Source: Raillietiella orientalis (lineage: Eukaryota). From it: a DNA stretch of 64,000 nucleotides. Below are positions 27,832-56,425 of this stretch, in pieces; position 1 is the first letter of the stretch; every line of letters begins with the position of its first letter. The stretch spans positions 248,001 through 312,000 of the forward strand of contig JAYWIR010000081.1 of the NCBI GenBank assembly GCA_036172245.1, given 5' to 3'. A program made the translations under genes and the position numbers. Below the pieces are notes generated by a model, which saw only the letters and a program-made list of their open reading frames with translations, made no database searches and had not been told where the DNA came from.

Positions 27832-28450
27832 ATTGTTGTGCGCTCCGTGGATAGGAAGTTATTGGTTTGGTGTTTCGTGTGTTTGTCGCGGCCGTTGACA
27901 GGCAGAAATGCCTGTGAATTCCGCAGATTTAGGTAAGGGAGGCGGGAAGACCGTGTCTCCCAAGCCAAAGGAGGTGGGATCACGCCCCACCACTACTTCT
28001 GAACCTTACCTTGCCACTACGGAAAGGGTTTTAAGCGCGGTGGTAGCAGCGAAAACGCCCAATGTCGCCGCCGAAATACAATCCTACATCCAAAAGGGCT
28101 ACAATCCGGCCCTCCTGTACAAGGTAGGAAATTTATATTCCCCGTTGAAGGCGCGAAAGTTCGGCAATGCCATCAAAAAGATGGGCATTGCCGACCATGA
28201 AATTCTTTGCCTGTCAATACAAAGCGGAGGGTAGTTGGCGGAACTCAACTGCAAGGATGCAGCTCTCACCCACAAACTGCTCTGCACGCCCGTACAATTT
28301 GAGGGCAGGAATTTACTTTCCCACACGGTGGACCACTCCATTGTGGTTCACCTTCTCGGGACAACAGTTCGGATGGATGAGAACGCCATCCGCGCTGAGC
28401 TTGAAAAATTCGCAAGGGTTTTCGCAATGTGGCGAAAGCCCAACACCTTC
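27832..28450 (+). mobile_element. Family C copy 2, 5' part of ORF1, interrupted by antisense element G
   Basis: MPVNSADLG... closely similar to 34356 onward; breaks after WRKPNTF. Confidence 0.9.
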
Positions 28451-30356
28451 AAAGTAATTTCCACCCGGGTAATCCCGGGAAGTTTATTAAAAAAACATTC
28501 CACAAACGTGGTATTAGGCCCCACTAACGGCCACACAACACCGGACCTGCCGAGACGCAGGGACGCAGGACGACGTGGCTCTCCTCGGCAGTGGAAGGGA
28601 TGGGGGAGAAAACAAAAAGAAAAATAAAAAGTAAGGAAAACAAAATGAAGTTGAAGGGCTGGGAAGGGATTACTTTGCACTGGAAGGAGGTCCCATCCTT
28701 CGAAGGAAGCCCTTTAAGTCCATCCGAATTGTGCCCAGCTGGGGCCATTCAGAAGCTCTCGTCAGGAAGGGAACAGCATACCTGATGACGTCGCTGTCGT
28801 TCTGGTACACATCTTCGTCGCGTGTATCACTCCACGCCGCCACGATGCCACGGATGCAGCATAATGCTGCCAAGGCTGCGACTGGCTGCAGGGCGTCCCG
28901 CACAAAGAGGAGGCGGAAAACGTTCCTGGGCGCTCTCCCCGTAGGGAGCCCTAGGATCGTCCTAAACCGTCCCACAGGGGTCGAAGAACAGCACCGTCAA
29001 CAAGAAGGTGGGGGAGCGATTCCCTCTCCACACACCGTGCACAATCAGGATTTACTCACCCCCAGGTCCCTCGTCCAACAATATCCCTCGTCCTGAGTTA
29101 CGGTAGGAGACTTGCCACTTCGGCGTGCGGCCGCTGGTAAGAGTTCTATACAGAAAGGGCAGCGCCGTAGCTAAAGGGTTGGTCTCCTCCCACGTGCTTC
29201 TGGCGGGACACTGCAAAGTGGACAGCAGAGTGCAGCAGGCGTTACTGCCGAATCGCAGGCGGTTCCAGTTTTCCTCTCTGGTGTTGTTCAACTTTGCACA
29301 CGTTCCAACGGTTTCCTTCAACCAGGCGGAAGAATTGGCGGGGCTGCATACTATCCAACCTTTCTCTCTTACCAGGGCTTCCATACGTCCGAGAAAGAGG
29401 CCGCATCTTCTAACCTTCCGGCCGCGGCACACAAGATGGGACGCGAGCCCTTGCGTATCGGAAACACGGCTGGCAACGAGGCCAGAACGCACCAAGGGGT
29501 GTTCCACAACTTCGCTGAGATAGCCAAAGTGCGCCATCGCAGCTGGATCTCCAAGCGCTCTAGCGTCAGAAGGCCGAGACCACCGTCCGGACGAGGAGCG
29601 TTTATGTCTTTCAAGTTAAATCGGAGTCTTCCGCTGCCCCAATGGGCAATACGGAGGACCTCCTTGGTCCGTTTTTTCGACAGGGTAGGGACTGGGCAAA
29701 CAAAAAGTAGAAGGCGTAGGATGGGGGCCGCGTATGCGTTCCAAACCGCGGCCCCTTCCGGCAGAAGGAACTTGCCTTCCAGGAACAGGCCGATCGCGAG
29801 CTCTAACTTTAGGAGACGACCAGACCAGTCATCTGCTAAGCAGAAGTCCCCCAACATGACACCCAGGTACTTCAGGCACCTGGCCGTGGGGATCTACAAG
29901 CGGTTCCAGTCAAGCCGTCCGACCCACGTCGCACCAACCGCTACTATCGATGACTTCGCCTTGTTAACACGCAGTCCAGACCCGCGGCTTAGCAGATCGA
30001 AGAAATCCTCGACTGCGGCTGCCGTGGTGGACATGGGCAACATCAGCAGAAGATCGTCGGCGTATGCTGCAACAGCGGCCGTGCCGGGGCAAGAGCTCGG
30101 TAAGGCGGCCAAAGTCACCCTGTACGCTCTCAGCACGAACACAAAGTAGGTGCTAAAGAACAGGGGACTGAGGCTTTCGCCCTGCCGTATGCCCCGCCGC
30201 ACCGGCACGCCGTACGCTGCGATTCCCCTGTAATGAACATTAATCAGCGCGCAGCGCCAGCATGAGCGCAGGTAGGAGAGAACAGACGGTGGGAAGCCCA
30301 TGAGACCCAATAGCTGCAGCATAAGATCCTGGTCTACGCAGTCGAACGCCCTATGC
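28451..30356 (-). mobile_element. Element G (A-related): RT motif HRAFD to the 3' end; interrupted by element F
   Basis: AFDCVDQDL, RQGESLSP, YADD; 3' UTR similar to family A; terminal AATAAA + CCCGGG-ATTA-CCCGGG (28464-28479). Confidence 0.9.
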
Positions 30357-31545
30357 GCTCGAGGGCGGACGTGTTTTCTCGGTGCTCCTTGTGCCAGGAA
30401 GTCTCCCCCAGTGCAAGCGTCGTGCGGTTCGGTGGTCGATCAGACAGGGATGCATAACGTGAACACCAAGGATGGCCAGGGGGCAGAGGCAACGTCGCAC
30501 CCAGTGGCGATGGGAAGCCAAGGTGCGGCGGCGACGTCGGCCCTAGAGGCAATGGAGTTGAAGGAATCCGCCCCCACAGAATCGATCATCGCTGCAGCGC
30601 GGGCATGGAGAGCCGTTGTGTCGGCGCCATCGCCTGCAGCCGCGGCGGAATTGCCGGCCTATGTGAAGGAGGGGTATAACCCCCTAAAGTTCTACAATGT
30701 AGGCAATCTCTATTTTTTTGAGAGCGCGCGCGCCTTTTCGAAGGGCATGCGCGCTCTCGATGTAAAAGAGGAGGAGATCAGCGGTATGACCATCCGCAGC
30801 TAGGGTCAGTACGTTGAGGTCAACTGCAAACAAGCAGAGCTGGCCCAACGACTTCTTAAAACCCCCGTTGTGATGGCAACGCTCAGGCTCCTCCTCACTA
30901 CGGCGTACCGCAGCATGGTGGTCCACCTGTTAGGTGTAACCGCGCGAATGCGCAAAGAACAGGTTCGCGCCGCTCTAGAACAGTTTCGAACGGTCAACGC
31001 GAAGTGGACGGAAGTTAGTCCCTTCAAGGACTACACGGGACTGCAACACGGCCTCACGGCTGTGCTCGTGACCGTTCAGAAGAACTGCACCCTTCCCCCC
31101 AAAATGGTGGTCGAAGGCGGAACCGTTTACCTCTGCTATGTGGGGAAGACAAAATACTGCGGCTTCTGCAATACGTCGGGCCACCTCAAAAAGAGGTGTC
31201 CCAAAGTGCAGTGCCAAGTATGCGGCACAATGGGTCACCCGAGAGAGGTGTGCTCAAAAGCAGCAGTGCGGGTGGTTTCCAGGAGAAACCTTAAAAAACG
31301 TGCCCGGCTTCTGCGGAACAGGCTGGCGGCCAAAGCTGCCGCGAAGGCTGTGCCAGCCGCGCCCAAGGCCCAGGCCGCACCCGAGATCCCGGCGAACAAC
31401 GCCGAAAAAGTTGAAGGAGCCGTCCAGGAGACTGGGTGGCAAGTGGCAACGGCCAAAAAATCAAAGAAGGAGAGAAGGATGGAGCTCGCGTACCGCAAGA
31501 ACAAACAGCAGCCAAGCGAGCACATTAAAGAATGCAGCGTTATCG
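30357..31545 (+). mobile_element. Element F: 5' end and ORF1 (stop and frameshift), interrupted by antisense element H
   Basis: 5' GGACGTG motif; CGFCNTSGHLKKRC and CQVCGTMGHPREVC; breaks at IKECSV. Confidence 0.88.
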
Positions 31546-34277
31546 TTTATTACCCGGTTGTGCCGGGACGTTTATTAAAATATCAACTAAGAACTGTGTT
31601 CCCAGGCAAGGGGAACAGAAAATGGGGAGTGGATTTCCCGGAACGCAGTCCGGGCACACGGAGAGTTCGGAACGGGAGGGGGTGGGACAATAAATAAATA
31701 GACTGGGTGGGAGGGCGGGGACAGGGGTATACAGTCTAACCGTTCCTATTCTCAGAACCGGCGGTGAATGCCAACGATCTCCGTCCTCAATTCTGCTCCA
31801 AGATGTGGCCACCCGGCAGCCATTTGCAGGTTGCAGGCTGTGGTGTCGGGGACCGATGTTCGGACTGCTCGCATCTGCAATACGTGGCGGGCCCTGACAA
31901 TGGCGCGGACGCAGCAGATGATTGCGACGACCGCTCCAAGAGAAAGTTCGCCACGCGTGTAGAAGCGGCGCATCCAATCCAGTGCGGTGTGTCCAGGGTG
32001 CAGGAGCGCTGAAGACAGCCGCTGCCGCAGCTCCTGAAGGGCACCGCACTCAAACAGCAAATGCGGAAGCGAATCCACCGCTCCGCATTAGGCACAGTTC
32101 GGGGACGCAACTACCCCGGAAATCAGGTGCGCCCGCTGGTTGCAGTACAAACCCCAATGCACCAGCAGAAAAGCGTCCTGCTTCCACCGAAGGGGGAAGA
32201 GAGTCGCGTCCAAACACACAGAAGGGACCACAAGTTCATCGGTGGGCACCCCGAGGAGCTCACTCCACCGGAGAAGCCCCTTTGCAAGAATGCGAGGTGT
32301 GGCAGCGTCTGCCACTTCGCAAGTCCGCCAGCCGCCCAGCAGTCGTTTTTCGCCTGCCATTTCGCAAGTGATCTCCCACTTCGCCGGCAGGTCACTGTCA
32401 TCTCGCACCATCAGTATACACAGTGCTTCGGCGAGTGGCGTAGCGGCTAGGCGTGTCCACTGGTCCTGGTCTTCCAGCACCTCCCCATACTGTCCAGTGG
32501 GGAGGTGCTGGAAGTTTCACGCAACGGAGTTCCAAACGGGACACATCCTGTTGCGCTGCCCAGGACGATAAGGCTTCCTGCCTCCAGGCGTTGAAGTTTG
32601 TCGGCCGGCAGGAGATCCACTCATGCTTCAACAGAAGCGTGGAGAGCTGCTTCAAAGGGAAGCCGAATCCTCTCTGGGCGCGCTCCGTGCGCAGATGCAA
32701 CGAACGTAGTCCGTCGCCACCCGTGCTGCGCGGCAGCAGCAGCCGCGCTGGAGCACACCGGGGAGTAGTCCAGAGCTGCGCACAAAGTGCCAGCATGCGG
32801 AACTGCACTAGCAGTCGGATCCGCTCCAGCGTCAGGATGCCCAATCCTGCATCCCGCCGAGGAGCCGCCAAGTCCTTCAGGCGTATCCTGGACCTCGGCG
32901 GTCCCCACAGGGCGTTACGCAACAGGCGTTACGCCCGGCTCTTAGCCGAGTTGGTAGGGGGACAAACAAAAAAGAGGAAACGGAGCAGGGGGGCATCCAA
33001 AATGTTCCTCACGAAAGCCCGTTCCGACAGGAGAAACCTGCAGCCTTTGAACGAACCCAGAGCAGTCTCGGCCTTGTGAAGGCAGTCCGACCACGCTTCT
33101 GCTGGACAGAAGGCGCCCAAGGGAACGCCAAGGTACTTCAAGCACCTGCCCGTGGGGATCCTCAGTCGGATCCATTCGGACTGCCCCTCCCACGTAGAGC
33201 TAACCGGTACAACGATTGATTTCGTCCTGTTTACGCTCAGGCCCGCTCCCCGACGAATGAGCTCGAAGAAGTCCTCGAGCCTGGACGCCGGGGAGGACAT
33301 GGGCAGCAGCAGGAGAAGGTCGTCAGCAGAGGCGGCCACGGCCGCTGTTCCCGGGCAGGAGCTCGGCAGGTTGGCCAGCGTCAGCCTGTACGCCCTCAGC
33401 TCCAACTCAAAGAAGATGCTGAAGAGCAGGGGGCTTAAGCTGTCTCCCTGCCTGATACCCCACCGTATGGGAAAACCGTACACGTGACGGCCTCTGAAAG
33501 AGATACAGCATAACGGGTGGCGCCAGCCGGAGCGCAAGAAGGCGATGAGGTTCGTCGGGAGGCCAAGGCGTCCCATAAGCTCCAGAAAAAGGTGCTGGTT
33601 TACGCTGTCGAACGCTTTAGAGAGATCGACGGCGACCGCTAAGGCTCCCGGCGTTTTATTGTGCCTTGAACACCGCCGCTTTCTTTTGGCTGCAGCGATT
33701 TTGGCTGCCTGGCTCTGCTGCGCCAGGCGCTGCTGCAACTCGAACCATGTTCGCGCGAGGAAAAGATTCGCGTCCATGGACCGCCCCGGAACTGCATACG
33801 TCTGCTCCGGACTCACCAAGGACTTTGCGATTCTCCCCGAGCGCGCGACCGATAGCCTGGGGAACAACTTGACGTCCGAATTCACCAATGTGATCGGAAG
33901 CCAGTTGCTGAGGTGGCGCAAATCACCGCCTTTCGGCAGGAGCCGCACCTTTGCTGAGCGGAAAGAAGCGGGAACATCTCCCGTCTCACGCATCCGCGAG
34001 GAAAGGCTTAGCACCAGGGGGACGAGCTCCGCCGCGAAGCATCGTAAGAACTCCGCGGGCAGGTCATCCTCGCCAGGCGCCTTACGCCTCTTCAGGCCCG
34101 CTATGGCAGAAGATACTTCTTCCGCCGTGAAGGTCCAATCCAATCTGGTGCGTTCCTCCTCGTCGATAGCAGGGTTTCCCGTCGGAAGAAGCAGCTCGGA
34201 GAGACTGAGTTCCGTGGGCTTCTCCGATGTACAAGGCGGAGTAGTAGCGCTTGACTACGCGGTGCACGGCGGACGCA
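31546..34277 (-). mobile_element. Element H (B-related): ORF2 from the linker to the 3' end; interrupted by family C
   Basis: ORF 32929-34143 with DLSKAFD, RQGDSLSP, SADD, KYLG; terminal AATAAA + CCCGG-CACAA-CCGGG (31553-31567). Confidence 0.9.
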
Positions 34278-35489
34278 CTTGTTGCGCGCTCCTTGGATAG
34301 GGAGTTTTTCTTTCCTGGTGTTCCGTGTGTGTTTCGCGGCCGTTGACAGGCAGAAATGCCTGTGAACGCCGCAGTTTCAGGTGAGGGAGGCGGGAAGACC
34401 GCGTCTCAAAAGCCAAAGGAGGTGGGATCACGCCCCACCACTTCTTCTGAACCCGCCACTACGGCGAGGGCCTGGAGCGCGGTGGCAGCGGCGGAAACGC
34501 CCGATGTCGCCGCCGAAATTCAATCCTACATCCAGGAGGGCTACAATCCGGCCCTCCTGTACAAGGTAGGCAATTTATATTCCCCGTTAAGGGCGAGAAA
34601 GTTCGGCAATGCCATCAAAAAGATGGGCATTGCCGACCATGAAATTCTTTGCCTCTCTATACGGAGCGGAGGGCAGTTGGCGGAGCTCATCTGCAAGGAT
34701 GCAGCTCTTACCCACAAGATGCTCTGCACGCCCGTACAATTTGAGGGCAGGAATTTACTCCCACACACGCTGGACCACTCCACTGTGGTCCACCTAACAG
34801 GGACAACAGTGCGGATGGATGAGAACGCCATCCGCGTGGAACTGGAAAAATACGCAAGCGTTTTCGCGATGTGGAGAAAGTCCAACACTTTCGGAGTGAA
34901 TGGTGCATTTAGTGGGCGAGTAGGCGCGCGCGTGACGCTTCGAGAAAAAGTACAGCTTCCCCACAAGCTCCAAATTGGCGACGAGTTCGTCGACATTTGG
35001 TTTGCGGGGAAACCTAAATTTTGTGGAAACTGTAAGTCGTTCGGGCATTTGAAAAAACGGTGCCCGGACGCGGTTTGCCCAACGTGCGGCGCGAAGGGCC
35101 ACACCAAAGTGGTGTGCCCGATGAACGTCGCTCCAACGCCGGAACTTCCGCAAAAGAAGGCAGGGAAGGCAAAAATAGTAATAAACCCCACAAAAGGGGA
35201 TCAACCGTCGGCTCCGACAAAAGTCGCGCAGCAGGAAAGGGACTCGGTAAAGGAGCTCCCGGAAAAGACTGCCGACGAGGAAGGCTGGCAGCTGGTCACC
35301 CGTAAAGTAAAAATCGTTAAAAAAACCGCGCCCGCACCGGCGAAAGTGGTGAAGGGCAAGGGGAAGGTCGCGCCATACCCAACAATCAAAGCGTGCAGCG
35401 TGGCCATCAAACGCGTGCCGGCGATCGATACTCGCTCCGCTGACGGATCGATGCGTTGTGACGTCACGCCAGCTGTTCAACCCGCCGCC
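34278..35489 (+). mobile_element. Family C copy 1: 5' UTR and open ORF1 (from 34356), truncated by the family D array
   Basis: CGNCKSFGHLKKRC and CPTCGAKGHTKVVC; frame ends at VQPAA where the D 5' end begins. Confidence 0.92.
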
Positions 35490-35580
35490 TGAGAGGGTGG
35501 ACGAGCTTTTGTGGTGCTCCGCGTTTTTCTCGCGAGTGTTTTCGGTGTTTTCAGCTGTGAGCGGTTGTTCCTGGGCAGAG

Positions 35581-37247
35581 ATGCCCGAGGACGCCGCAAA
35601 GACGGCGGAGGGGGGCGAGCGAGCCTCGTCCCCCCAGCCCATGGATGTGGGGGCCATCTCCCCCACGGAATCGTCCCCCGCCCCGGCGAGGGCTTGGAGC
35701 GCGGTGGGGGCGGCGCCTGCGCCGCCCCCCGCAGAGGAACAGCGGGCCTATATGGCCGACGGCTACAACCCGGCCCTACTTTACAAGGTAGGTGGCCTGT
35801 ACTCCCCCGCGGTGTTACGATCGTTCGCCGCGGAGTTTAAAAAGTTGAAAGTCCCGGAGGACGAAGTCCTCGGGCTTTCGGTTAGGAGTGGCGGGCAGCT
35901 GGTTGAGCTGAACTGCAAATCTGCAGGGATGGCTCAGCAGCTGCTCCGCCTGCCGGTGACCGTGAACGGGCGAAGGATCTTCCCGTTCACGGCGGACAAC
36001 TCCATCGTGGTGCATTTGACCGGCATAACGATGCGCATGGCAAAGAGCGCCGTGCGAGAATCGTTAGAGAAGTTCGGGACCGTTCACGCGTTGTGGGCAA
36101 AACCCAATGTCCTGGGTTACACCAGGGCAGTTAGTGGTTACGCCGCTGCGCGTGTGACGGTACGTGCCGAGGGTGGGCTACCCCACAGACTGCAGGTCGG
36201 GGAGGAGGAGATCGACCTGTGGTATGTGGGGAAACCCGTATACTGCGGCTTTTGCCAGGTGTCGGGGCATTTAAAAAAGAAATGCCCCAACATCGTGTGC
36301 TTGGGCTGTGGGGAGAAGGGGCACATCAGGCGGATGTGCCCCAACCGAAAAGGTCCGTTCCGTCAGGCGCGAGGAAGGAAGAGACGCCGAAGGAAAAGGA
36401 CCGAAGCCAACAACTGGCAGAATCCCGCCCTGCCGACCAACCCGCTACTCAGGCATCCACCAGCGAACAACCAGCTGGAGAAAGCGCCGAGAACGAGGAA
36501 GGTTGGCAAAAGGTAGAACGGAAGAAGCCCCAGAAGAAGGAGGCAAAAAAGATAAACAAGGCGGCGCCGAAAAAGCAGAAACCGGTCGTCCGCGCTTGTA
36601 CGGTGAAGATCGAACGCGTCTCGATCGCCAGAGCCGTAAAGAAAGTAACGGTAAAGGCGATCGATACCGTCGATCCTGAGCCGGTCGTGCCCGCAGTGAC
36701 GTCACCATCAGCTGACGACAATGCCGTTCCGGCATTGCCAGCGAAGGACGTCTGCGCGCCGATCGATGAAGCCGCCCCTGTCGCGCCTGCGCAAAGCGTC
36801 GGTGCGGAAAGCGAGGAGGCGGCGCGCATAACGGACGCGACCTTCGCGCAGGCCGCGGAAGAGCTGGCAGCCATGTTACGGCAGCCTGCCAAGGCCGAGA
36901 AGAAGGCCATGAGACGACCGGCAACGGTGAAGGGCCCGGAAAATTCCGAGTCCGAAACCGAAGCCGGTTGTTCTACTTCCGCAGCCGTGCCGAAGAGGAA
37001 GGCTGGCAAGAAGACCGGTTGCCCGAGACGGGTCGCCCCTCCGCAGGTGGAGGAGGCCATGTCCTCGGGCACGGAGGAGGAGGCAATGTGCGTCGCGCCA
37101 CGCGACCCCTCCCCGATCCGTGTCTCGGAAGCCAGCCCCATGGAAGTCGCTGTGGACGACGTGCTCCCGTGTGAGCAGCCGACCGTCGTCACGGCCGCCA
37201 ACAAGCCGCCTCCCGCAAGGGAGGAGGCCGCCTCCACCCCACAATAA
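35581..37247 (+). pseudogene. ORF1 of family D, with a one-base frameshift in an A-run near 36348
   Basis: CGFCQVSGHLKKKC and CLGCGEKGHIRRMC. CCGAAAAGG here versus CGAAAAAGG in copy 2 (41941), which stays in frame. Confidence 0.85.
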
Positions 37248-37255
37248 ACGCATCA

Positions 37256-40200: not shown

Positions 40201-40813
40201 CACTATAGGCGGCAGGACACAATCGATAAAGGCGTGGACATCTCGGCAGCTAGCTGACGCTGCGACGCCGAGTGTCCCGCCCAACGGAATTCGACGCTGG
40301 GGCGAGCTACTCGGACTATCTCCGGAGGAGATGAAGTGGCCCCCAGCGTCCTGGAACCGTGCATCCCTCCCCCTGAAATGGCAGGATGTGGCGTTGCTTG
40401 TGGTCCTCTGGGGACTTCCATTCAAAGCACGCCTTCATCACACAACCCGGGGGGCTGTGGATCCTTATTGTGGCCGGTGCGGGGAAAAAGAGACCTTCCC
40501 CCACCTTCTCATCGAGTGCAGTGCCATCCGCCCTTTATGGGATCGTCTCGCGGCGATCCTGGACTTGCGCGGATTCGGCCCAAAGGACGTTTTCATGCGC
40601 CTCTTCTGTAGTGACGCCTTCTCCCCGCCCGCTAGTGTAGCAGTCCTCTGCTGCATCAGAGGAATAGTGGCGGCTTGGAACGCCACCAGAAGAAGGCGTC
40701 AGCCAACCGGCAACGCCTTACACTGGACTCGCGTTTTCGCGCGAAGTGTCTGCAAGTGGCGCCACTTGGGCGCTGAAAGGACGAAGCTTGTGCGGATCCT
40801 GAATAGGATCTAG
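37256..40813 (+). CDS. Intact ORF2 polyprotein, 1185 aa: APE endonuclease + reverse transcriptase + CCHC zinc finger
   Basis: WNVNG, LQETH, NLYAP, GDFN, IDH, SDH; APGEDG, NWRPI, DLHKAFD, RQGDSLSP, YADD, KYLG; CGRCGEKETFPHLLIEC. Confidence 0.96.
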   Translation: MRGLAFCRRLRITCWNVNGLRDGGKRRDVAAILRDFDLVLLQETHVLRPGDVQEIERIAGGRLLWRNGTDNSCGVAFLLKPTVDNSLRSARFDGDGRVGQLVFKWSDSIDLVVTNLYAPVSSHRAEERTAFFETLRRDWLAEAGVRRAHLIAGDFNLRLLAGAPSGRAQLVNELCAAMHARNLLAGDAGRDRNIDHMFLDNHLCTRVGTRGTLPAELSDHPRLVLELHPRNKGPPLKTWHLPGDWLRLAGAAEHLRCFLRGFQLQTLADWDEMKCSVREFCDQFPLERLPPGFGEGVRNERAYLQARRYSRRPDVRRLAEFKAEAERQAWQSGSACLLDHQGQERSSPALVSRIVREFYSSLYAPLTPERHFAQRLLPDGAPALKEEDRSRLAEPFTMAEIISAINRLKRRKAPGEDGLPAEFYHRFAPELAPLVLRLSALIREHGEVPASFRSAKLRLLPKSGDLRNIGNWRPITVVNADAKLYAKLWAERLGRVPASVVSPEQTYAVPGRTMEANLLLASSWWQLRQRVAHDGQGSLAPFSDQEDRAEGGMDSAGAFAVAVDLHKAFDCVDQDLLLELLERMGFPAVLQSYLRCCWRNASINIGFSGRHVYGVPVRRGIRQGDSLSPLLFSIYFELVLRAYRVTLATLPSSCAGTPAVSAYADDLLLLLPGSTPASALEDFFELLRRGTGLEVNRAKSSMVFVGSAWAGQSDWIRLGIPTGRCFKYLGVPLGDFCAAEAWSDRLQKAALAIGPFQEGKFYLQERAAVWNAFAAPLLRPLLFVCPAPYFIRKRAAGLLRTVLWGKGRSRVRLKDLCAPRKDGGLGLLTLERIEIQLRFRTLALAAELWDTPWCVPARLLAQQACGIGGLLSFLSARVCRRPYCGSMLRRIFVAVRENAWISCLPGNYSAWLHESVSTWVKTHVPAGTRNTCMKRHARWTLQEIVQSHDKLLWALITPLSPVLPFLVNARDSSEQGKWTVSCTIGGRTQSIKAWTSRQLADAATPSVPPNGIRRWGELLGLSPEEMKWPPASWNRASLPLKWQDVALLVVLWGLPFKARLHHTTRGAVDPYCGRCGEKETFPHLLIECSAIRPLWDRLAAILDLRGFGPKDVFMRLFCSDAFSPPASVAVLCCIRGIVAAWNATRRRRQPTGNALHWTRVFARSVCKWRHLGAERTKLVRILNRI

Positions 40814-41042
40814 AGGACCTCTCCACGCGCACCGTGATCCCTTCCCCGCCCTCCCATCCCTACAACATTTGTTCCCCCCCCCACATTTGAACTTTTTGTT
40901 TCTTTTTGTTTTTCTTTATTTCCCATCCCCGCGCATCGGAAGGACCTCTCCGGCACGGAGCCGGTAACCAGCAAGCTGTTATGGAGTGGTGAACCTTCGG
41001 GTTCGCCACGCGACATTTCTTCTGTTATTTTATTTTTTATGA

Positions 41043-41067
41043 AATAAATGCCCCGGCACATCCGGGT
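41043..41067 (+). terminator. Conserved element 3' terminus: AATAAA + CCCGG-N5-CCGGG hairpin (representative of nine instances)
   Basis: AATAAATGCCCCGGCACATCCGGGT; homologues near 6340, 15689, 19173, 27799, 28464, 31553, 47906 and 52284. Confidence 0.75.
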
Positions 41068-41093
41068 GTGAACAACCCGCCGCCTGAGAGGGT

Positions 41094-41100
41094 GGACGTG
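41094..41100 (+). promoter_or_regulatory. Conserved 5' motif (G/A)GACGTG, DPE-like internal promoter element (representative)
   Basis: Near the 5' ends of A (19140-19146, 24800-24806, minus), B (11503-11509 minus, 54342), D (41094, 52326), E (42300) and F (30367). Confidence 0.5.
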
Positions 41101-45200: not shown

Positions 45201-47926
45201 CGGGAGTTTTATTCCTCCTTATACGCGCCATTAACACCCGAGGGCCAATTCGCGCAGCAGTTGCTGCCGGATGGGGCTCTCGCGATCGGGGAGGAAGTTT
45301 GTTCCAGGTTGTCGGAACCATTTACGGTGGCAGAGATTGTCTCCGCCATCAGTAAATTGAAGACAAAGGACGGCCTGCCCGCGGAGTTTTACAAACACTT
45401 CGCGACAGAGCTGGCTCCCCTGGTGCTCAAGCTAAGTACGCTGATCCGCGAACACGGCGAAGTTCCCGCCTCGTTCCGATCAGCAAAAGTACGTCTCCTG
45501 CCGAAGTCAGGAGACCTACGCAAATTTAGCAACTGGCGTCTCATCACAGTGGTGAATGCGGACGCAAAGTTGTATGCCAAATTGTGGGTTGAGCGTTTAG
45601 GACCGGTGGCGGATTCCGTGATCAGCCCGGAGCAAACATACGCTGTTCCCGGGCGAACCATGGAAGCCAACCTGCTCCTCGCCAGCACATGGTGGCAGTT
45701 GCAACAGCGCTTTGCACAGGACGGTCAAGGGAGCCTTGAGCACCCCTCTGACCAGAGAGACCCGGTAGAGGGTGGGGCGGAATCGGCGGGAGCCTTCGCC
45801 ATCGCTGTCGACTTGCGCAAAGCATTCGACTGCGTCGACCAGGATCTCCTTCTGGAGCTCCTGGAACGAATGGGTTTCCCGTCCGTGCTCCAGTCCTACC
45901 TGCGCTCCTGCTGGCGCGACGCGTTGATTAACATTGTTTTCAGCGGCCGGCACGTGTATGGCGTGCCAGTGCGCCGCGGCATCCGGCAGGATGACAGCCT
46001 GAGCCCCTTGCTCTCCAGCATCTACTTTGAGTTAGTGCTGAGGGCATACAGGGTAACTCTGGCAACCCTGCCGAGCTCGTGTCCCGGCACGCCTGCTGTG
46101 TCGGCCTATGCAGACGATCTTCTGCTGCTGCTTCCCGGGTGCACCCCGGCGAGTGCACTCGAGGACTTCTTCGAGTTGCTGCGCCGCGGGACGGGCCTGG
46201 AGGTGAACAGGGCGAAGTCGTCCATAACTTGTACCTGCTCGGCGTGGGCTGGACGGTCGGACTGGATCCGCTTGGGGATCCCCACGGGCAGGTGCTTTAA
46301 GTACCTTGGTGTTCCGTTGGGGGAATTCTGCGTGACAGAAGCCTGGTCCGACCGTCTACAAAAGGCATCGTTGGCGATCGGTGCGTTTCACGAAGGCAAG
46401 TTTTACTTGCAGGAACGGGCCGCAGTGTGGAACGCGTTTGCGGCCCCCCTTCTACGCCCTTTACTTTTTGTGTGCGCCGCTTCTTATTTCGTCAGGAAAA
46501 GAGCAGCGGGCCTCCTACGGACAGTCCTTTGGGGCAAAGGGAGGTCCCGTGTGCGTCTTAAAGACTTGTGCGCTCCACGTAAAGACGGTGGACTTGGCCT
46601 ACTTACGCTGGAGCGCATGGAAGTACAATTTCAGTTTAGGACTCTCGCCCTTGCGGCGGAATTGTGGGACACGCCTTGGTGCGGTCCAGCACGACTTCTG
46701 GCCCAGCGAGCCTCAGGATATAGCGGACTTTCTTCGTTTCTCTGGGCGCGCGACCGCTGACAAGCACACTCCGGCTTTCATCTGCGGCGCATGGCCGTTG
46801 TGGTTCGGAAGAACACCTGGATCTCCTGCGTCCCAGGGAACTACTCGGCATGGTTGCACGAGACAGTCTCCACTTGGGAAAAGCTTCACTTTCCGGCGGG
46901 CACAAGAAACACTTGCCTGAAAAGGCACGCCCGCTGGACGCTACAGGAGATCGTGCAGTCCCACGATCAGCTTCTGTGGGCCCTGATAACCCCGCTTGCT
47001 CCTGTGCTGCCCTTCCTACAAAACGCTAGAGACAACAGGGAGCAGGGGAAATGGACCGTATCCTGCACCATCAAAAGTAGGACACAAAAGATTAAGGCGT
47101 GGACATCTCGGCAGCTAGCGGACGCTGCGACGCCGAGTGTCCCGCCCAACGGAATCCGACGCTGGGGAGAGCTACTCGGACTATCTCCGGAGGAGATGAA
47201 GTGGCCCCCAGCGTCTTGGAATAGTGACTCTCTCCCCCTGAAATGGCAAAAGGTGGCGCTGCTCGTGATACATTGGGGTTTACCCTTCAAGGCACGCCTC
47301 TCTCACTCCACTCGGGGGGCTGTGGATTCCCACTGCGACCGGTGTGGGGAGAAAGAGACATTCCCCCACCTCCTTATTGAGTGCATTGCTCTCCGCCCTC
47401 TCTGGGATCGTCTTGGAGCAATCCTGGACATTCGCGGAGGCGGCCCTAAAGGTGTTTTTAGGCGACTCTTCTTGCGTGATGCCTTGTCCCCTCCCGCTTC
47501 TGTGGCAGTTCTTTGCTGCATTAGAGGGATCGTGTCGGCTTGGAACGCGACAAGAAGAAGGCGCCAAGCTTGCGGCAATGCTGTACACTGGACTCGCCTT
47601 TTTGTGAGAAACATTTGCAGGTGGAGACACCTGGGTGCACAACGGACGCAGCTTGTGAAGATCCTGAACAGGATCTAGAGGACCTTTAAGCGTGCAATGT
47701 GATTCCCTTCCCGCCCTCCCTTCCCAAACATAAGTACTCCCTCCAACTTTTACATTTTTTTGTTTGTTTCGTTTTTTTCTTCCCGTTCCCGCGCGTTGGA
47801 AGGACCTCGCCGGTTTAGAACCGGCAAGAAGCAGGCTGCTTTGTGCTGAACCATCAGGTTCTTCACCCGAAAATTACATGTATTTTAATTTTTTTAGATA
47901 AATGCCCCGGCATATCCGGGTAAAAA
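42298..47926 (+). mobile_element. Family E full-length Tx1-type element nested in D ORF1
   Basis: Direct repeat CGCAGTGACG at 42288-42297 and 47927-47936; the empty site (CCCGCAGTGACGTCACC) is visible in D copy 1 near 36692; ORF2 44136-47678 with stops. Confidence 0.96.
42382..44127 (+). CDS. ORF1 protein of family E (two CCHC zinc knuckles)
   Basis: Open frame MPEDTANAEK...; CGNCETTGHLKRRC and CLRCGNKGHVRKVC. Confidence 0.9.
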   Translation: MPEDTANAEKGDGRALSPQPMDVGAISPTDSSPAPARSWSAVVAAPAPPPCEEQRAYESHGYNPALLYKVGGLYSPAMLRTFAAEFKKLKVPEEEVLGLSVRSGGQLVELNCKTAGMTQQLLRCPVTVNGRRIFPFTADKSIVIHLTGLTMRMAKNAVRQELEKYGTVHALWAKPNTLGYTRAFSGYAAARVTVREDSGLPHRLQVDEEYIDLWYIGKPKFCGNCETTGHLKRRCPNIVCLRCGNKGHVRKVCPLRFASTPVGNKRTESPQEPDKQDPQSSETSQTGEISTPVEQKPEEGETVAENSWQLVKKKESKKKGKAPKKTVKMVAKTVRRSTVHIDRVPAKASTSKPSIDTAPAASIDRAVPASCGEIATVAIDSAAHVAAIEIVVPVQSTGSVVAASESSAAAVPNDSAPVAAIESVVTSPDSPTGGEIRDDVERISDANFAQAAEELAAFRRQPVKAEKKAVRRPATAKDPETSEFDAESGNSPSVGLPKRKHKNATGARKRAVTSQEEVEMPSDSEEESMCVAQCDFVPESILYQLLTQSTADGVSDAPEHSNDMDPDHPSSEQEAVSSTPP

Positions 47927-50900
47927 CGCAGTGACGTCACCATCAGCTGACGACAATGCCGTTCCGGCATTGCCAGCGAAGGACGTCTGCGCGCCGATCG
48001 ATGAAGCCGCCCCTATCGCGCCTGCGCAAAGCGTCGGTGCGGAAAGCAAGGAGGCGGCGCGCATAACGGACGCGACCTTCGCGCAGGCCGCGGAAGAGCT
48101 GGCAGCCATGTTACGGCAGCCTGCCAAGGCCGAGAAGAAGGCCTTGAGACGACCGGCAACGGTGAAGGGCCCGGAAAATTCCGAGTCCGAAACCGAAGCC
48201 GGTTGCTCTACTTCCGCAGCCGTGCCGAAGAGGAAAGCTGGCAAGAAGGCCGGATGCCCGAGACGTGTCGCCTCCTCCCAAGTGGAGGAGCCCATGTCAT
48301 CGGGCACGGAGGAGGAGGCAATGTGCGTCGCGTCACGCGAGCCTTCTCCGATCCGTGTCTCGGAAGCCAGCGCAATGGAGGTCGCTGCTGACGACGTGCT
48401 CCCGGGTGAGCAGCCGACCGTCGTCACGTCCGCCAACGAGCCGCCTCCCGAACGGGAGGAGGCCGCCTCCACCCCACCATAAATACACCAATGCGTGGGC
48501 TCGCCTCCTGCCGCCGCTTGCGCATCACCTGTTGGAATGTCAACGGGTTGCGCGACGACGGAAAGAGGCGAGATGTAGCCGCCATACTGCGAGATTTCGA
48601 CCTGGTGCTCCTGCAAGGGACGCACGTTCTCCGACCGGGAGATGTCACGGAAATCGAAAGAATCGCGGGAGGGCGGCTACTGTGGAGGAACGGAACGGAC
48701 AACTCCTGCGGAGTGGCCTTTCTGCTAAAGCCAACCGTCGACAACTCACTGCGCAGTGCACGGTTCGACGGGGATGGTCGAGTTGGGCAGCTTGTGTTCA
48801 AGTGGTCCGACTCGATCGACCTCGTAGTCACGAACCTGTACGCTCCGGTGAGCAGCCACAGGACCGAGGAACGCACTGCGTTCTTCGAAACCTTGCGGCG
48901 AGACTGGTTGGCCGAAGCGTGCGTGCGAAGGGCGCACCTCATTGCGGGCGATTTCAATCTCCGCCTGCTGGCAGGTGCGCCCAGCGGACGAGCACAGCTG
49001 GTCAACGAGTTGTGCGCAGCCATGCATGCGCGCAACTTGTTGGCCGGTGATGCCGGGAGAGATCGGAACATCAACCACATGTTCCTCGACAACCACCTGT
49101 GTACGCGGGTGGGAACTCGAGGAACGCTCTCGGCAGAGCTGTCCGACCATCCACGGCTCGTGCTCGAGTTACATCCGCGCAATAAGGGCCCTACCCTGAA
49201 AACATGGCGCCTGCCAGGGGATTGGTTGCGCCTCGCAGGAGCGGCGGAACATCTACGCTGTTTCCTGCGAGGATTCCTGGTTCAGACGCTCGCGGACTGG
49301 GACGAAATGAAGTGCTCAGTCCGTGAGTTTTGCGACCAGTTTCCCCTGGAACGTCTTCCGCCGGGCTTCGGTGAGGGTGTCAGGAACGAGCGGGCGTACC
49401 TCCAGGCGCGCCGTTATTCCCGGCGTCCCGACGTCCGTCGCCTGGCTGAATTCAAGCCTGAGGCGGAGAGGCAGGCCTGGCAGTCAGGCGCGGCCTGCCT
49501 GCTGGATCATCAGGGCCAAGAACGCTCCAGCCCAGCCCAGGTAAGCCGCATCGTGCGGGAGTTTTATTCCTCCTTGTACGCGCCACTAACACCTGAGCGC
49601 CATTTCGCGCAGCGCCTGCTGCCGGATGGCGCTCTTGCGCTCAAGGAGGAGGACCGTTCCAGATTGGCGGAACCGTTCACGATGGCGGAGATCATCTCCG
49701 CCATCAACAGGCTCAAGAGAAGGAAGGCACCAGGGAAGGACGGCCTGCCCGCGGAGTTTTACCATCGCTTCGCGTCAGAGCTGGCCCCCCTGGTGCTTAG
49801 GTTAAGTGCGCTGATCCGCGAACACGGCGAAGTTCCCGACTCGTTCCGGTCAGCTAAAGTACGTCTCCTGCCGAAGTCAGGAGACTTACGCAACATAGGC
49901 AACTGGCGTCCCATCACAGTAGTGAATGCGGACGCAAAGTTGTATGCCAAGTTGTGGGCTGAGGGTTTGGGGCGGGTGGCCGCTTTCGTAATGAGTCCCG
50001 AGCAGACCTATGCTGTTCCCGGACGAACCATGGAGGCCAACCTGCTCCTCGCCAGCTCATGGTGGCAGTTGCGACAACGCGTTGCACATGACGGTCAAGG
50101 GAGCCTCGCGCCTTCCTCTGACCAAGAAGATCGGGCAGAGGGTGGGATGGACTCGGCGGGAGCCTTTGCCGTCGCGGTCGATTTGCACAAAGCATTCAAC
50201 TGCGTCGACCAGGATCTCCTTCTGGAGCTCCTGGAACGCATGTGTTTCTCTGCCGTGCTTCAATCTTACCTGGGCTCCTGCTGGCGCAACGCGTCAATCA
50301 ATATCGGTTTCAGCGGCCGCCACGTGTACGGCGTGCCCGTACGCCGCGGCATCCGGCAGGGTGACAGCCTGAGCCCCTTGCTCTTCAGCATCTACTTCGA
50401 GTTGCTGCTGAGGGCATACAGGGTAACTCTGGCAACCCTGCCGAGCTCGTGTGCCGGCACGCCTGCCGTGTCGGCCTAGGCAGACGATCTTCTGCTGCTG
50501 CTTCCCGGGTCCACCCCGGCGAGTGCACTCGAGGACTTCTTCGAGTTGCTGCGCCAAGGGACGGGCCTGGAGGTGAACAGGGCGAAGTCGTCCATGGTCT
50601 TCGTCGGTTAGGCGTGGGCTGGACGGTCGGACTGGATCCGCTTGGGGATCCCCACGGGCAGGTGCTTCAAGTAGCTCGGCGTACCGTTGGGGGACTTCTG
50701 CGCAGCAGAAGCCTGGTCCGACCGTCTCCAAAAGGCAGCGTTGGCGATCGGTCCGTTCCAAGAAGGCAAGTTCTACTTGCAGGAACGGGCCGCGGTGTGG
50801 AACGCGTTTGCGGATCCCCTCCTTCGCCCCCTACTTTTTGTTTGCCGCGCCCCTTATTTTATTCGGAAACGAGCAGCTTGTCTCCTGAGGACAGGTCTTT

Positions 50901-52316
50901 GGGGCAAAAAGAGGTCCCGTGTGAGGCTCAGAGACTTGTTCGCTCCACGTAAGGACGGTGGACTTGGCGTACTTACGCTGGAGCGCATGAAACTACAACT
51001 TAGATTCAGGACACTCGCCCATGCGGCGGATTTCTGGGACACGCCTTGGTGCGTTCCAGCACGCCTCCTGGCCCAACGAGCCTGCGGATTCGACGGACTT
51101 TTGTCGTTTCTGTCTGCGCGCGTCTGCAGAAGACCATACTGTGGCTCTATGCTGCGACGCATCTTCGTTGCGGTTCGGGAGAACGCCTGGATCTCCTGCC
51201 TCCCAGGGCACTACTCCGCCTGGTTGCACGAGTCAGTTTCCACCTGGGAAAAGATCCACGTTCCGGCGGGCACAAGGAACACTTGTATGAAAAGGCACGC
51301 CCGCTGGTTGCTGCAGGAGATCGTGCAGTCCCACGACAAGCTTCTGTGGGCCTTGATAACCCCCTTCGCCCCAGTGCTGCCCTTCCTTGTGTATGCCAGG
51401 GACAGTAGCGAGCAGGGGAAATGGACCGTTTCCTGCACTATAGGCGGCAGGACACAATCGATAAAGGCGTGGACATCTCGGCAGCTAGCTGAGGCTGCGA
51501 CGCCGAGTGTCCCGCCCAACGAAATTCTACGCTAAGGCGAGCTACTCTTACTATCTCCGGAGGAGATGAAGTGGCCCCCAGCGTCCTGGAACAGTGCATC
51601 CCTCCCCCTGAAATGGCAGGATGTGGCGTTGGTTGTGGTCCTCTGGGGACTTCCATTCAAAGCACGCCTTCATCACACAACCCGGGGGGCTGTGGATCTT
51701 TATTGTGACCGGTGCGGGGAAAAAGAGACCTTCCATCACCTTCTCATCGAGTGCAGTGCCATCCGCCCTTTGTGGGATCGTCTCGCGTCGATCCTGGACT
51801 TGCGCGGATGCGGCCCAAAGGACGTTTTCAGGCGCCTCTTCTGTAGTGACGCCTTGTCCCCGCCCGCTAGTGTAGCAGTCCTCTGCTGCATCAGAGGAAT
51901 AGTGGCGGCTTGGAACGCCACCAGAAGAAGGCGTCAGCCAACCGGCAACGCCTTACACTGGACTCGCGTTTTCGCGCGAAGTGTCTGCAAGTGGCGCCAC
52001 TTGGGCGCTGAAAGGACTCAGCTTGAGCGGATCCTGAATCGGATCTAGAGGACCTCTCCACGCGCACCGTGATCCCTTCCCCGCCCTCCCACCCCTACAA
52101 CATTTGTTCCCCCCCACATTTGAACTTTTTGTTTCTTTTTGTTTTTCTTTATTTCCCATCCCCGCGCATCGGAAGGACCTCTCCGGCACGGAGCCGGTAA
52201 CCAGCAAGCTGTTTTGGAGTGGTGAACCTTCGGGTTCGCCACGTGACATTTTTTCTGTTATTTTATTTTTAAGAAATAAATGCCCCGGCACATCCGGGTG
52301 TGAACAACCCGCCGCC

Positions 52317-54335
52317 TGAGAGGGTGGACGTGCTTTTGTGGTGCTCCGCGTTTTTCTCGCGAGTGTTTTCGGGGTTTTCAGCTGTGAGCGGTGGTTCCTG
52401 GGCAGAGATGCCCGAGTACGCCGGAAAGACGGCGGAGGGGGGCGAGCGAGCCTCGTCCCCCCAGCCCATGGATGTGGGGGCCATCTCCCCCACGGAATCG
52501 TCCCCGCCCCGGCGAGGGCTTGGAGCGCGGTGGTGGCGTGGTGCATTTGACCGGCATAACGATGCGCATGGCAAAGAGCGCCGTGCGAGAATCGTTAGAG
52601 AATTTCGGGACCGTTCACGCGTTGTAGGCAAAACCCAACACCCTGGGTTATACCAGGGCGTTCAGTGGCTATGCCGCCGCGCGTGTGACGGTCCGAGAGG
52701 AAAGTGGTTTACCCCACCGACTGCAGGTCGGTGATGAACACATCGACCTGTGGTACATAGGGAAACCTAAATTTTGTGTAAATTGCGAAGCCATCGGACA
52801 CCTCAAACGGAGGTGCCCTAACATCGTGTTCCTCCGATGTGGTACCAAGGGACACGTACGAAAGGTGTGCCCTTCTCGTTTTGCGTCCACTCCTGCTGGC
52901 AACAAGAAAACCGAGTCGCCACAGGTGCAGGACAAACAGCATCCCCCATCGGGTGAATGCTCGCAAGCAGGCGAGAAACCGATGCCGGAGGAAGAAAAGG
53001 CGGAGGATGGCGAAGCTGTCGCCGAATACAGCTGGAAGTTGGTGGAGAAAAAGGAGAGCAAGGGGAAAGGTACGGCCCCCAAGAAAACGGTAAAAATGGT
53101 GGCGAAAAGCGTCCGTCGTTCCACCGTAAACATCGATCGCTTTACCGCGAAGGCTTCCTCCAGCAAGCCGTCGATCGATACCGCATCTGCGGCATCGATC
53201 GATAGAGCGGTCCCGGCCCCGTCCACCGAAATCGCTACGGTAGTGATCGATATCGCGGCACCTGTTGCCGCGATCGATACTATTGTTCCAGTTCCGTCCG
53301 CTGGAAGTGTTGTAGTGGCGAGTGAAAGCTCAGCCGCTGCTGTTCCGATCGATAGCCCGCCGGCTGCAGCTTTCGATTCGGCAGTGACGTCACCGGACTC
53401 GCCAACAGGCGGCGAAGTCTGCGATGACGCGGAACGCATCTCCGATGCAGCGTTCGCGCAAGCCGCGGAAGAGTTGGCTGCCTTGTTAAGGCAGCCCGTC
53501 AAGGCCGAGAAGAAGGCCGTTCGACGCCCGGCTACGGCGAAGGACCCAGAAAACAGCGAGTCCGACGCCGAAACCGGGAACTCGTCGACCGTAGGGTTGC
53601 CGAAAAGAAAAAATAAAAGTTCAACGGGAGCTCGTAGGCGTGCTGTCCCCACTCAGGTAGAGGTGGAAATGGCATCCGACAGCGAAGAGGAGTCAATGTG
53701 CGTTCAAGCGTGCGACTCTGCGCCTAAGAGCATCCTATTCCAACTGTTGACACAGTCCTCGGCCGACGAAGCACACCAAACTCCTTCCGAATCCGTCGGC
53801 GTGGACGCGGAACACCCGTTTCCTGAAAGGGAGACGGTTTCCTCCACACCACCATAAATACACCTATGGTGTGGGCTCGCCTGCTGCCGTCGCTTGCGAA
53901 TTACTTGTTGGAACGTCAACGGGTTGAGCAGCGACGGCAAGAGGCGAGACGTAGCCGCTATACTGCGAGAATTAGACCTGGCTCTACTGCAAGAGACTTA
54001 CGTGCTCACAGCAGAGGCAGGCCAGCATTTCGAGAGGATCGCAGGGGGCAGGCTACTGTGGAGGAACGGAACAGATCACTCCTGCGGAGTGGCCTTTTTG
54101 CTGAAGCCGTCCGTCGAAAACTCACTGCGTAGTGCACGGTTCGACGGGGGCGGTCGAGTTGGGCAGCTTGTTCTCAAGTGGTTCGACTCCATCGACCTCG
54201 TGGTCACGAACCTGTACGCTCCGGTGGGCAGCCACAGATCCGAGGAACGCACTGCGTTCTTCGAATCCCTGCGGCGAGACTGGTTGGCCAAAGCAGGCGA
54301 GCGAAGGGCGCACCTCATTGCGGGCGATTTCAGTC
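52317..54335 (+). mobile_element. Chimeric D/E-like element (D 5' end, internal deletion, E-like ORF1, endonuclease up to GDF); host of family B copy 2
   Basis: 5' end matches D; sequence jumps from ...GTGGTGGCG to TGGTGCATTTGACC near 52538; downstream ORF 52685-53857 resembles E ORF1. Confidence 0.88.
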
Positions 54336-56425
54336 GAGTGCGGACGTGTTTTTCTTCGCTCTCGTCTCGGTGCTTTCATCCGCTTCATCTTGGCGTCGTA
54401 CATTTTGACGACGATGTCGACCCAACTTGAAGCTACTGAAGTTGGGGGAACAGCATCCGGATCTGCAATCGCGGAACCGACGGCCGCCTCCACTTCGTCT
54501 TTCTCGCCAATGGAGAGGAGTTTTGCTGACGTTGCTGCCACAGCAGCCGTCAAACGGAAACCACTCGACGAGTCGGAGTTGCGGGCATACGTAGTCCAAG
54601 GCTATAGACCTGCTCTCCGATATAAGGTGAGTGGTTTTCTTTCTGCGCGCGACGGGAATCAGTTCAACGATGAACTGACCCGTGTTGGCGTGCGGGAGGA
54701 GGACCTTCTCGCCATTATGCCCGTGAAAGACATGGGCTATTTCAAGGTGCGTTGCAAAGACGCTGCACTTGTGCAACGCTTGCTGAGCACCCCGTTGTCG
54801 ATCCGTGGCCAGAAGGTCTTCCCGGCCGCCATGGACGACTCATTTGTGGTGGAGATTTTCGACATCGAGTCGGAAATCTCCGATACTGATATTCGGAACG
54901 CGTTGGCGAAATTCGCCACGGTCCATGCGCTGTGGAGGGTGCGTAGCAACCTCAAGGACTTCCCGTCCATACACAGCGGAGTCGCTGGAGTCCGGCTTAC
55001 AATGCCGGACCGCCGTCTGCTGCCCACCAAACTACAGGTGAAAGACACGGTCGTTCACCTGTGGTTCGTGGGCAAAGTAGAAACGTGCGAGCAATGCGGG
55101 AAGGAGGGGCATTGTTTGAATAAATGCCCCTCTGGAAAATGCCGTTATTGCAAACTATCCAGGCACCCATTGAAAAATTGCCCGGATCTTTTGCGAAAAA
55201 AGGCAGCCGCGGAGCTTCATCTTAAGAAACAAGGCGCGGAGAAAAAGAAAAAATCTGCGAAAAACATGGAGACCCCACGGCAGAAATTCGGTAAAAACGC
55301 GAGGCGGAATGTCGCCCCAAAGCAGCATGAAACCTCGCACGCGAAGCCCTGCGTGCCCACTCTCGAGGCAGGGGAGCCGAAAAAGAAAGAGTGCGGGTAA
55401 TCCGGGGCAATGGTAAGTCCCCCTAGGCGCAATAGCTGTCCTTCGCGAGCACGCCCGGCTCTTTCGGAGTTCGAGCAACCGGCGGGGACGTCAATGGACA
55501 ACGGCGGTAAGGACACTTCCAGTACCGTTAGATCCAATCCTTCACCTCCTGCAGTGACTGAGAAGCCCAAATCGGGTAAGAAGGGTTGTGCAGTGTCGAC
55601 TTCGAAAGTCGGCAAAAAACAATCCGCGTCGCGATCCGACACCGCGAAAGCGGAGAAAAATCTCACGCCGTCGCAATCGGAGAGCAAGCTCTCGACTGGC
55701 GCGGATGCCATGCCAACGAAGGGATTAAAAGCCCTTCCGAAGGCAGCGTCCATGACGAGCGTGTCGAAGCCATCCAAAGTGCTCCCGTCCTAAGACGCGG
55801 ATGGCTTCAAAGATGGCAATGGAGCACAATCTCCATTTACGGCGCCACGCGAAGTGAGGAGCCGTAATGAAGTAAAGAAGACTTCAGCAAAGGTCCCTCG
55901 TGCAACTGCGCGTGAGCACGCTGAAAACGCGCGCGCCGGGAAAGTAGCCGTCACCAAAAGCGACGCTCTGGTGACGGAAAACGAAAACAGGACAGCTGTC
56001 AATCCAGCAGAAGCTGTCACTGCTTCGCGGAAGGCCGAAACCCGATCGAACATGCGCCGGTCGGACTCTGAAGTGGATGCTGTTCCGATCACCGAGACGA
56101 GGACAACTCGCTCGAAAGCGTGTGCGCGCCGATCAAAAGTAGGCAGCCAGGCAACGCTCGCCGCGAAGCAACGCGAAGTCTCCACGAAACCCGACGGGGT
56201 TCAGCGTGGCGTGGAGGCATTACATGCATGCAGCACGACAGAAGACGGTGGCGACCGTCCCCTCCAGCCAGTCGTGCTGCTCGCCGTCTGCTCGCCGGAT
56301 AAAGCGAGCAAAAAGCTGCCACCTTCCCAGCAGTAATGCAGGAATCGCGTCTTCTCGTCGCCTGTCCGTAACGTGTTGGAACGTGAACGGACTGCAGAAC
56401 GACGAGAAGAGGCGATTAGTAGCCA
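54336..56425 (+). mobile_element. Family B copy 2: 5' end, ORF1 (with stops) and first codons of ORF2, 3'-truncated
   Basis: MSTQLEAT..., CEQCGKEGHCLNKC and CRYCKLSRHPLKNC, TCWNVNGLQNDEKRRLVA; near-identical to 10150-11515 on the reverse strand. Confidence 0.93.

Follow-up and report, generated by a model that had tools for sequence, protein, structure and literature searches.

Up to 56.4 kb, a 64,000-nucleotide stretch of the Raillietiella orientalis genome (contig JAYWIR010000081.1, positions 248,001 to 312,000 of the forward strand; hereafter the window) is nearly all non-LTR retrotransposon (LTR, long terminal repeat), and it contains a seven-level nest of related long interspersed nuclear elements (LINEs). 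The LINE families taking part, which we call B, C, D, E, F, G, H, X and Y, include eight that use fixed targets, G in part. Across the genome, the ends of inserted copies (guests) lie at one nucleotide and on one strand of their hosts in up to 30 of 30 loci. We conclude, with a probability of roughly 0.85, that the families are a lineage-specific radiation of L1-type LINEs, each with its own short target in the coding regions of its sisters.

The protein layout is that of L1-type (L1/Tx1) elements. The second open reading frame (ORF2) of the full-length copy D1 is open (37241-40810) and encodes an N-terminal apurinic/apyrimidinic endonuclease (APE; Pfam Exo_endo_phos, E = 1e-14), a reverse transcriptase (RT; RVT_1, E = 1e-22) and a C-terminal zinc motif (zf-RVT, E = 2e-4, under its cut-off). 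ORF1 is separate; zf-CCHC was detected in two of the four ORF1s scanned (E = 5e-5 and 4e-4), and CCHC knuckle motifs are readable in the translations. The best match of ORF2 by sequence among solved structures is human L1 ORF2p (E = 5e-46). Target-site duplications (TSDs) accompany the insertions, as in L1-type LINEs, and are 11 bp for D, 9 bp for E and B, ~14 bp for F, ~13 bp for H and ~9 bp for X, with at most 2 bp for C. In a tree the families form one clade against five outside homologues (support 100/100, on a long branch); the best outside homologues are 21-35% identical, whereas the ORF2 proteins of sister families are 52-84% identical to that of D.

L1-type LINEs carry a 3' tail of poly(A) or a simple repeat, but there is no such tail at the 3' ends of these families. 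Their common 3' layout is AATAAA, a CCCGG/CCGGG inverted repeat and 6-10 more bases, and a 5' motif is also common to all of them. The CCCGG/CCGGG stem after AATAAA is invariant and its loop family-specific (for example at 41030-41073); this structure may be what the cognate ORF2 protein recognizes. As a significant fold the 3'-end hairpin was rejected (z-scores from -1.8 to +0.35 in seven ends, none strong).

The nest and its layers

The elements of the nest and their immediate neighbors, by window position, are as follows.

24817..27821, + strand: C0, the 3' part of an older C (ORF2 from amino acid ~294 to the end, and 3' untranslated region), in tandem with C1
27822..28457, + strand: C1, the 5' end and first ~180 ORF1 codons; level 1, host
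28458..30356, - strand: G, from RT amino acid ~571 to the intact 3' end; antisense in C ORF1, level 2
30357..31545, + strand: F, the intact 5' end and part of ORF1; antisense at the KAFD motif of the G RT, level 3
31546..34267, - strand: H, from ORF2 amino acid ~357 to the intact 3' end; antisense in F ORF1, level 4
34268..35489, + strand: C2, the intact 5' end and part of ORF1; antisense in the H ORF2 linker, level 5
35490..41073, + strand: D1, full-length with an open ORF2; level 6, followed by a TSD copy at 41074-41084
41085..52305, + strand: D2, full-length, split by E into 41085-42297 and 47928-52305; a TSD copy at 52306-52316 is next
42298..47927, + strand: E, full-length, sense in D2 ORF1, with the 9-bp TSD GCAGTGACG on both sides; a complete side nest
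52317..54335, + strand: third array member, with a D 5' end, a ~300-bp deletion at 52537 and E-like sequence from ~52620
54336..56425, + strand: B, the intact 5' end, ORF1 and first ~28 ORF2 codons; level 7
56426..58300, + strand: middle part of a decayed R2-like element with few genomic copies, joined to B at the breakpoint

An intact guest end abuts a severed host at C1/G 3' (28457/28458), G/F 5' (30356/30357), F/H 3' (31545/31546), H/C2 5' (34267/34268), C2/D (35489/35490) and host/B (54335/54336). These junctions are not due to chance, because the ends recur at the same nucleotide across many loci; binomial estimates of chance, which assume uniform insertion over a single element and use counts conditional on host, are crude and carry no weight here. 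A preliminary description of this stretch had already proposed the seven levels, and all of its junctions are present, although two of its coordinates were 7-10 bp off (28451 for 28457/28458 and 34278 for 34267/34268). C2 terminates in the D target AACCCGCCGCC (35479-35489). The D array consists of D1, D2 and the third member, with copies of the 11-bp target duplication between them, and the D/E third member is cut by B at the endonuclease GDFN motif. This third member is probably a D that held an E-like copy and collapsed through recombination, in which case the real depth may have been eight. The H of the window is 93% identical to a full-length H at locus L277. C1 and C2 belong to one family (87.8% over 633 bp), so that C is, as first described, both the outer host and an inner invader.

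Ages were estimated from private substitutions per site, a measure that varies with the number of sampled relatives (5-13 for G and 16-25 otherwise) and also counts changes made before insertion; the values are 0.048 for C1 (30/623), 0.054 for G (81/1506), 0.057 for F (68/1184), 0.017 for H (20/1190), 0.013 for C2 (16/1213), 0.005 for D1 (12/2404), 0.012 for D2 and 0.010 for B (12/1205). The layers fall into two tiers, an older outer one (C1, G and F, ~5%) and a younger inner one (H, C2, D, E and B, ~1%). The step from F to H is significant (p = 1e-7), as are the differences between C1 and C2 (30/623 versus 7/625, p = 9e-5) and between C2 and D1 (p = 0.014); the other steps are not. There is no significant age inversion along the nest, and C was active in both tiers. 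The expectation that inner layers should be younger, proposed earlier as a check, is thus borne out between the tiers.

No right half of C1, G, F, H, C2, the D/E chimera or B was found at window positions 56427-64000 or in the remaining 27.4 kb of the contig, and the 60 kb upstream of the window hold no right-hand half that carries the nest on. This extends to the contig end an absence that had been reported for the window. The sole downstream match is a ~1-kb F-like RT piece (60203-61240, minus strand, 82%), which adjoins a tandem repeat. B breaks off at 56425/56426, shortly into its endonuclease, and what follows is the middle of the R2-like relic; in 8 of 8 further B copies that were inspected, the element continues as usual. 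The relic has three other copies in the genome, one of which (L211) has an RT that matches R2 proteins at E = 8e-7; the match of the window's own piece is weak (E = 0.07). A join from mid-element to mid-element calls for a deletion, a rearrangement or a misassembly at 56425. The earlier proposal of a large deletion or rearrangement near 56.4 kb fits this join, as does misassembly, and we infer that the window holds the left half of one nest, later severed by deletion or rearrangement. The adjoining tandem repeat is AT-rich, has a period of ~7.6 kb, runs from 61237 to 64000 and on to the contig end, carries 51-bp subrepeats at 62004-62400 and also occurs at loci L021-L023. It was considered as ribosomal DNA and rejected (no Rfam match in 91 kb).

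A mirror-image nest lies to the left of the main one (5993-27821). It includes a complete B (6334-11515, minus strand, ORF1 carrying a deletion), whose host, a Y-type endonuclease, is present in both halves; near 15688 the RT motif is occupied by a 3' end of F type, and tandem X copies (16532-24816, minus strand) lie in C0. The left side of C0 is cut by an X 5' end, and C0 is 89% identical to the C ORF2 of locus L274, on another contig. Farther left, at 1700-3400, there is a remoter LINE with ~30% identity to the D endonuclease, and here too the similarity ends at the GDFN motif.

Fixed sites and independent insertions

We searched the 210 Mb contig-level assembly with the family ends and typed the flanks against family references at ≥85% identity. 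Each query gave 95-1106 candidates, of which the best 14-30 were taken, so that the counts are no census; the choice was made by likeness to the guest end alone, except for the D 5' query. Flanks of <60 bp were dropped (one each for D 5', D 3', F 5', C 5' and C 3'), as was one G end that lacked coverage. Because L101 and L103 are identical they were counted once, leaving four distinct F-in-D loci.

All 30 B 5' ends lie at the endonuclease GDFN motif (16 in X, 5 in Y, 1 X-like, 1 in E and 7 tandem). For F, 28 of 30 5' ends are antisense at the RT KAFD motif, the other two being one tandem and one with too short a flank; the hosts are X (9), D (5, two identical), H, B, G and F itself (1 each) and 10 less similar relatives. 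F is a generalist on this motif. Half of the D 3' ends (15/30) fall at a single base of C ORF1 and 7 are tandem. The H 3' ends lie at F position 1201 in 14 of 30 cases (one with a short flank), with 4 tandem and the others in other ORF1s or untyped. C 5' ends were found at H 3083-3084 (13/30), in H-like hosts (4) and in B (1), and C 3' ends in H (6), H-like hosts (6), B (1) and tandem (4, of 30). One D site accounts for 12 of 14 E 3' ends, and the X 5' ends lie in C (8/20) and D (3). Tx1-style specificity, taken, following PMC4494074, as >20% of flanks in one sequence type, is seen in B, F, E, D, H, C and X; for G, 5 of 15 G-proper copies (5/30 matches) are at the C site, and one tandem bears the C-site duplication. 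Complete nests with both host halves and TSDs include E in D2, the B at 6334-11515, X in C (L274) and a truncated G (L070). Further families have their own fixed sites (loci L010, L161 and L178; L152, L156 and L171; L182), one of them antisense at ORF2 amino acid ~450 of H-like hosts.

These counts would carry no information on targeting if one old composite had spread by segmental duplication, so that the shared junctions go back to single insertions. A duplicated junction would give equal divergence on both sides. Instead, the host flank distance exceeds the guest distance in 80-100% of pairs in six of seven junction types (D-in-C, H-in-F, C-in-H, B-in-X, F-in-X and F-in-D), which argues for independent insertions. 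Median host/guest p-distances are 0.046/0.028 for D-in-C, 0.120/0.060 for H-in-F, 0.078/0.032 for C-in-H, 0.105/0.024 for B-in-X and 0.138/0.048 for F-in-X. Among those types no Mantel test of the host-guest distance correlation gave p < 0.08, and no pair is <1.5% on both sides. In addition, B, F, C and X strike the identical motif in differing host families only 70-85% alike, and duplication therefore cannot be the source. Duplication has occurred: L101 and L103 are identical over 3239 bp (100%), and 10-21 kb upstream of the window there is an X-X-C0 block in inverted orientation, but in this block the X copies are 94-95% alike and C0 only 85%.

The exception is G-in-C, with host/guest distances of 0.150/0.156 (rho 0.94, n = 4), and three of the five G-in-C loci are in a C-tandem context where the host and guest distances match, as duplication would have it. 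Even so, monophyly of G-in-C was rejected (approximately unbiased test, p = 3.6e-5, 4 rows; 17 of the 30 G-query loci, with L070 left out of the G tree as too short), and the fifth G-in-C, L070, is a 320-bp 5'-truncated G with both C halves, lying between two TSD copies. We consider the duplication account largely refuted and very improbable.

The nests might instead reflect attraction to a chromatin domain, such as a centromere-like island of the kind known for Zepp or Celine, combined with a weak sequence preference, in which case any loop of targets would be a by-product of piling. The matches do cluster on short contigs and in LINE-only stretches, ~115 kb of the contig is nested LINE, G acts like a weakly specific element, and any deep pile is expected to show a loop. 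Yet the single-base, single-strand recurrence of guest ends refutes such a domain as sole cause. We regard it as improbable, while a regional co-factor may act too.

A further possibility is an assembly chimera or recombination between paralogues at conserved motifs. The region is repeat-only; the 56425 junction is unique among 40 matches, and one D/E recombinant junction is present. Homologous exchange, however, cannot yield intact 5' and 3' ends, mostly antisense to the host and flanked by TSDs. Dozens of contigs also show the same junction types, and ages decrease toward the inside of the nest. Among the junctions only the 56425 break still fits this explanation, which for the nest as a whole is extremely improbable.

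Target loops, self-avoidance and the endonuclease

With sister LINEs as targets, the families can be linked in a guest-to-host graph. When edges are required to have at least three distinct loci, the graph closes through D>C>H>F>D, through X>C>H>F>X and through a five-step variant; at two or more loci it also closes through C>B>X>C. The cyclic targeting proposed from the window, and the genome-wide graph suggested as its check, therefore hold through D or X. The particular loop first described, G>C>H>F>G, needs an F-in-G edge, which was found for 1 of 30 F ends and in this window only, and it also rests on the minority of G-proper copies at the C site. F-in-G fits the general taste of F for the RT motif and is single but believable. 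Calling the relation intransitive, as had been done, adds little: a loop is unavoidable once each family of a finite set targets another, and so it is no evidence for rock-paper-scissors selection.

Such selection would have had families evolve to hit rivals and lose their own target. The homologous site in the family's own sequence mismatches the family target in B, C, D, E, G and H, and insertion at conserved catalytic motifs wrecks the host copy. On the other hand, drift alone would remove targets in variable ORF1 regions from self, and the own site of X resembles the X target. Strict self-avoidance was rejected for F, which inserts into F (L106, 93%; L107 is F-like), and is doubtful for X. 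Internal self-insertion at the own site was seen only for F, with one clear case in 30; other self contacts are tandem TSD re-use or rearranged ends. A loop kept by selection is doubtful in our judgment.

Target-primed reverse transcription is established for APE-type LINEs. Each family here would insert by this route at its own short site in sister coding regions, since fixed nicks, duplications and tandem re-use fit it. Fixed sites, fixed orientation, family-typical TSDs and repeated independent events are all observed, as is re-use of the duplicated target in the tandem arrays. The site would be read by the ORF2 protein, likeliest by its endonuclease and maybe by other domains too. Dead sister copies could serve as harmless landing pads, and each fresh copy would import targets of other families, so that nests deepen and the guest-to-host graph closes in loops.

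The endonucleases have a common peculiarity. From the GDFN motif to the second Asp motif there are 38-40 residues in 7 of 7 local endonucleases versus 51-66 in 50 of 50 homologues. The ~20-residue deletion common to all seven (in D1, within 37256-37990) leaves the catalytic residues in place and aligns to L1 residues 181-196, the start of the betaB6-betaB5 hairpin. The predicted endonuclease (predicted local distance difference test score, pLDDT, 88) has the L1 endonuclease (L1-EN) fold, with a template modeling (TM) score of 0.75 and E = 1e-17 to PDB 1vyb, and has no hairpin at the deletion, where pLDDT is 77-80. The betaB6-betaB5 loop of L1-EN probes the minor groove, and its removal leaves little activity (PMC1950540). 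The endonuclease is the main determinant of target choice in the account given by PMC4494074. Reading of 10-20 bp sites by the proteins described here is the least certain step, because the hairpin is gone.

Several observations weigh against the proposed radiation with sister-LINE targets. Within each tier the dates give no order, with G and F nominally older than C1 (p = 0.61 and 0.73), and E and the E-like host of B are undated, as too few close copies were among the fetched loci. To the sampling of best candidates and the G-in-C exception described above we add the ends left untyped (11 of 30 for H, without an adjoining reference match, and 8 of 30 for C 3') and the 8 of 15 G-proper copies at unrelated sites, which have at most a short shared motif. 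The contiguity of the locus is that of the assembly: contigs from one sequencing run are paralogues, 7 of 68 pieces reaching ≥99% and none spanning the stretch. Lastly, the endonucleases lack the betaB6-betaB5 hairpin found in L1-EN, Tx1L-EN, R1Bm-EN and TRAS1-EN, and the endonuclease is only the most likely reader of the target.

Young G copies (L061-L069, L278 and L279, with short terminal branches) lie at unrelated sites, and two that were fetched whole are 650-900 bp; the branches of G copies at the C site are long. Either the specificity of G may have loosened, or nested copies may persist longer.

We tentatively go one step beyond the radiation itself and propose, as a possibility that we would not put at even odds, a LINE guild that feeds on itself. 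Its main landing sites would be the coding motifs of one another, in closed loops, and target reading would have been rebuilt on a hairpin-less endonuclease, one compact scaffold having diversified to recognize no fewer than eight distinct sites of 10-20 bp, on either strand. The outcome would be mutual inactivation with escape at the families' own sites.

Comparison with known systems

Known refuges of target-specific LINEs include ribosomal DNA, small nuclear RNA genes, microsatellites and DNA transposons. If the families described here do use each other as safe harbors, competition and dependence among transposons could be observed directly and counted from one genome. They would also provide a panel of close ORF2 proteins that differ in their precise targets and have a changed endonuclease surface, with which site reading by APE-type elements becomes testable. 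The novelty lies in target-specific LINE biology with sister LINEs as targets and in the mutual relation. We found no description of mutually targeting LINE families in open-access main text; supplements, such as the list of Tx1 targets of PMC4494074, may bear on this.

The closest likeness is to the Tx1 clade, and it rests on targeting features, not on an RT tree with Tx1L, Keno, Kibi and Koshi. According to the main text of PMC4494074, these APE-type LINEs use a fixed site and orientation inside another mobile element, their tandem copies sandwich the TSD, and families differ in site. Examples are Tx1L in the piggyBac element Tx1D, Tx1-Mar in Mariner-N4_AMi, Tx1-9_AMi in Harbinger, and Tx1-8_Crp and Tx1-4_AMi in LTR elements (PMC4494074). 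The targets given there are DNA transposons, LTR elements, RNA genes and microsatellites, whereas the families described here mutually target coding motifs of sister LINEs. The hairpin loop of Tx1L-EN is eleven residues long (PMC1950540), and the endonucleases of our families are ~20 residues shorter at that place.

Human L1 ORF2p (PDB 8uw3 and 1vyb) has the same order of APE, RT and C-terminal zinc motif and the same endonuclease fold. It differs in endonuclease sequence (~23% identity) and in its TTTT/AA target, in contrast to the long specific targets here, and our families are without the poly(A) tail and the betaB6-betaB5 hairpin segment.

Zepp of Coccomyxa and ZeppL of Chlamydomonas resemble the nests in forming large GC-rich clusters of L1-type LINEs inserted in existing copies. 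As described in the main texts of PMC3446292 and PMC8226300, they nest in their own family, mostly as 5'-truncated 3' ends, with one cluster per chromosome. The nesting reported here is not of this own-family kind: at least eight families take part, many 5' ends are intact, and the site is a single base in other families. In the contig-level assembly the matches lie on dozens of contigs. Celine, a centromeric LINE of poplar, likewise accumulates nested inside other transposons, but in the main text of PMC11288735 it has a regional preference for centromeres, a unique TSD for each copy and no fixed site in a sister LINE.

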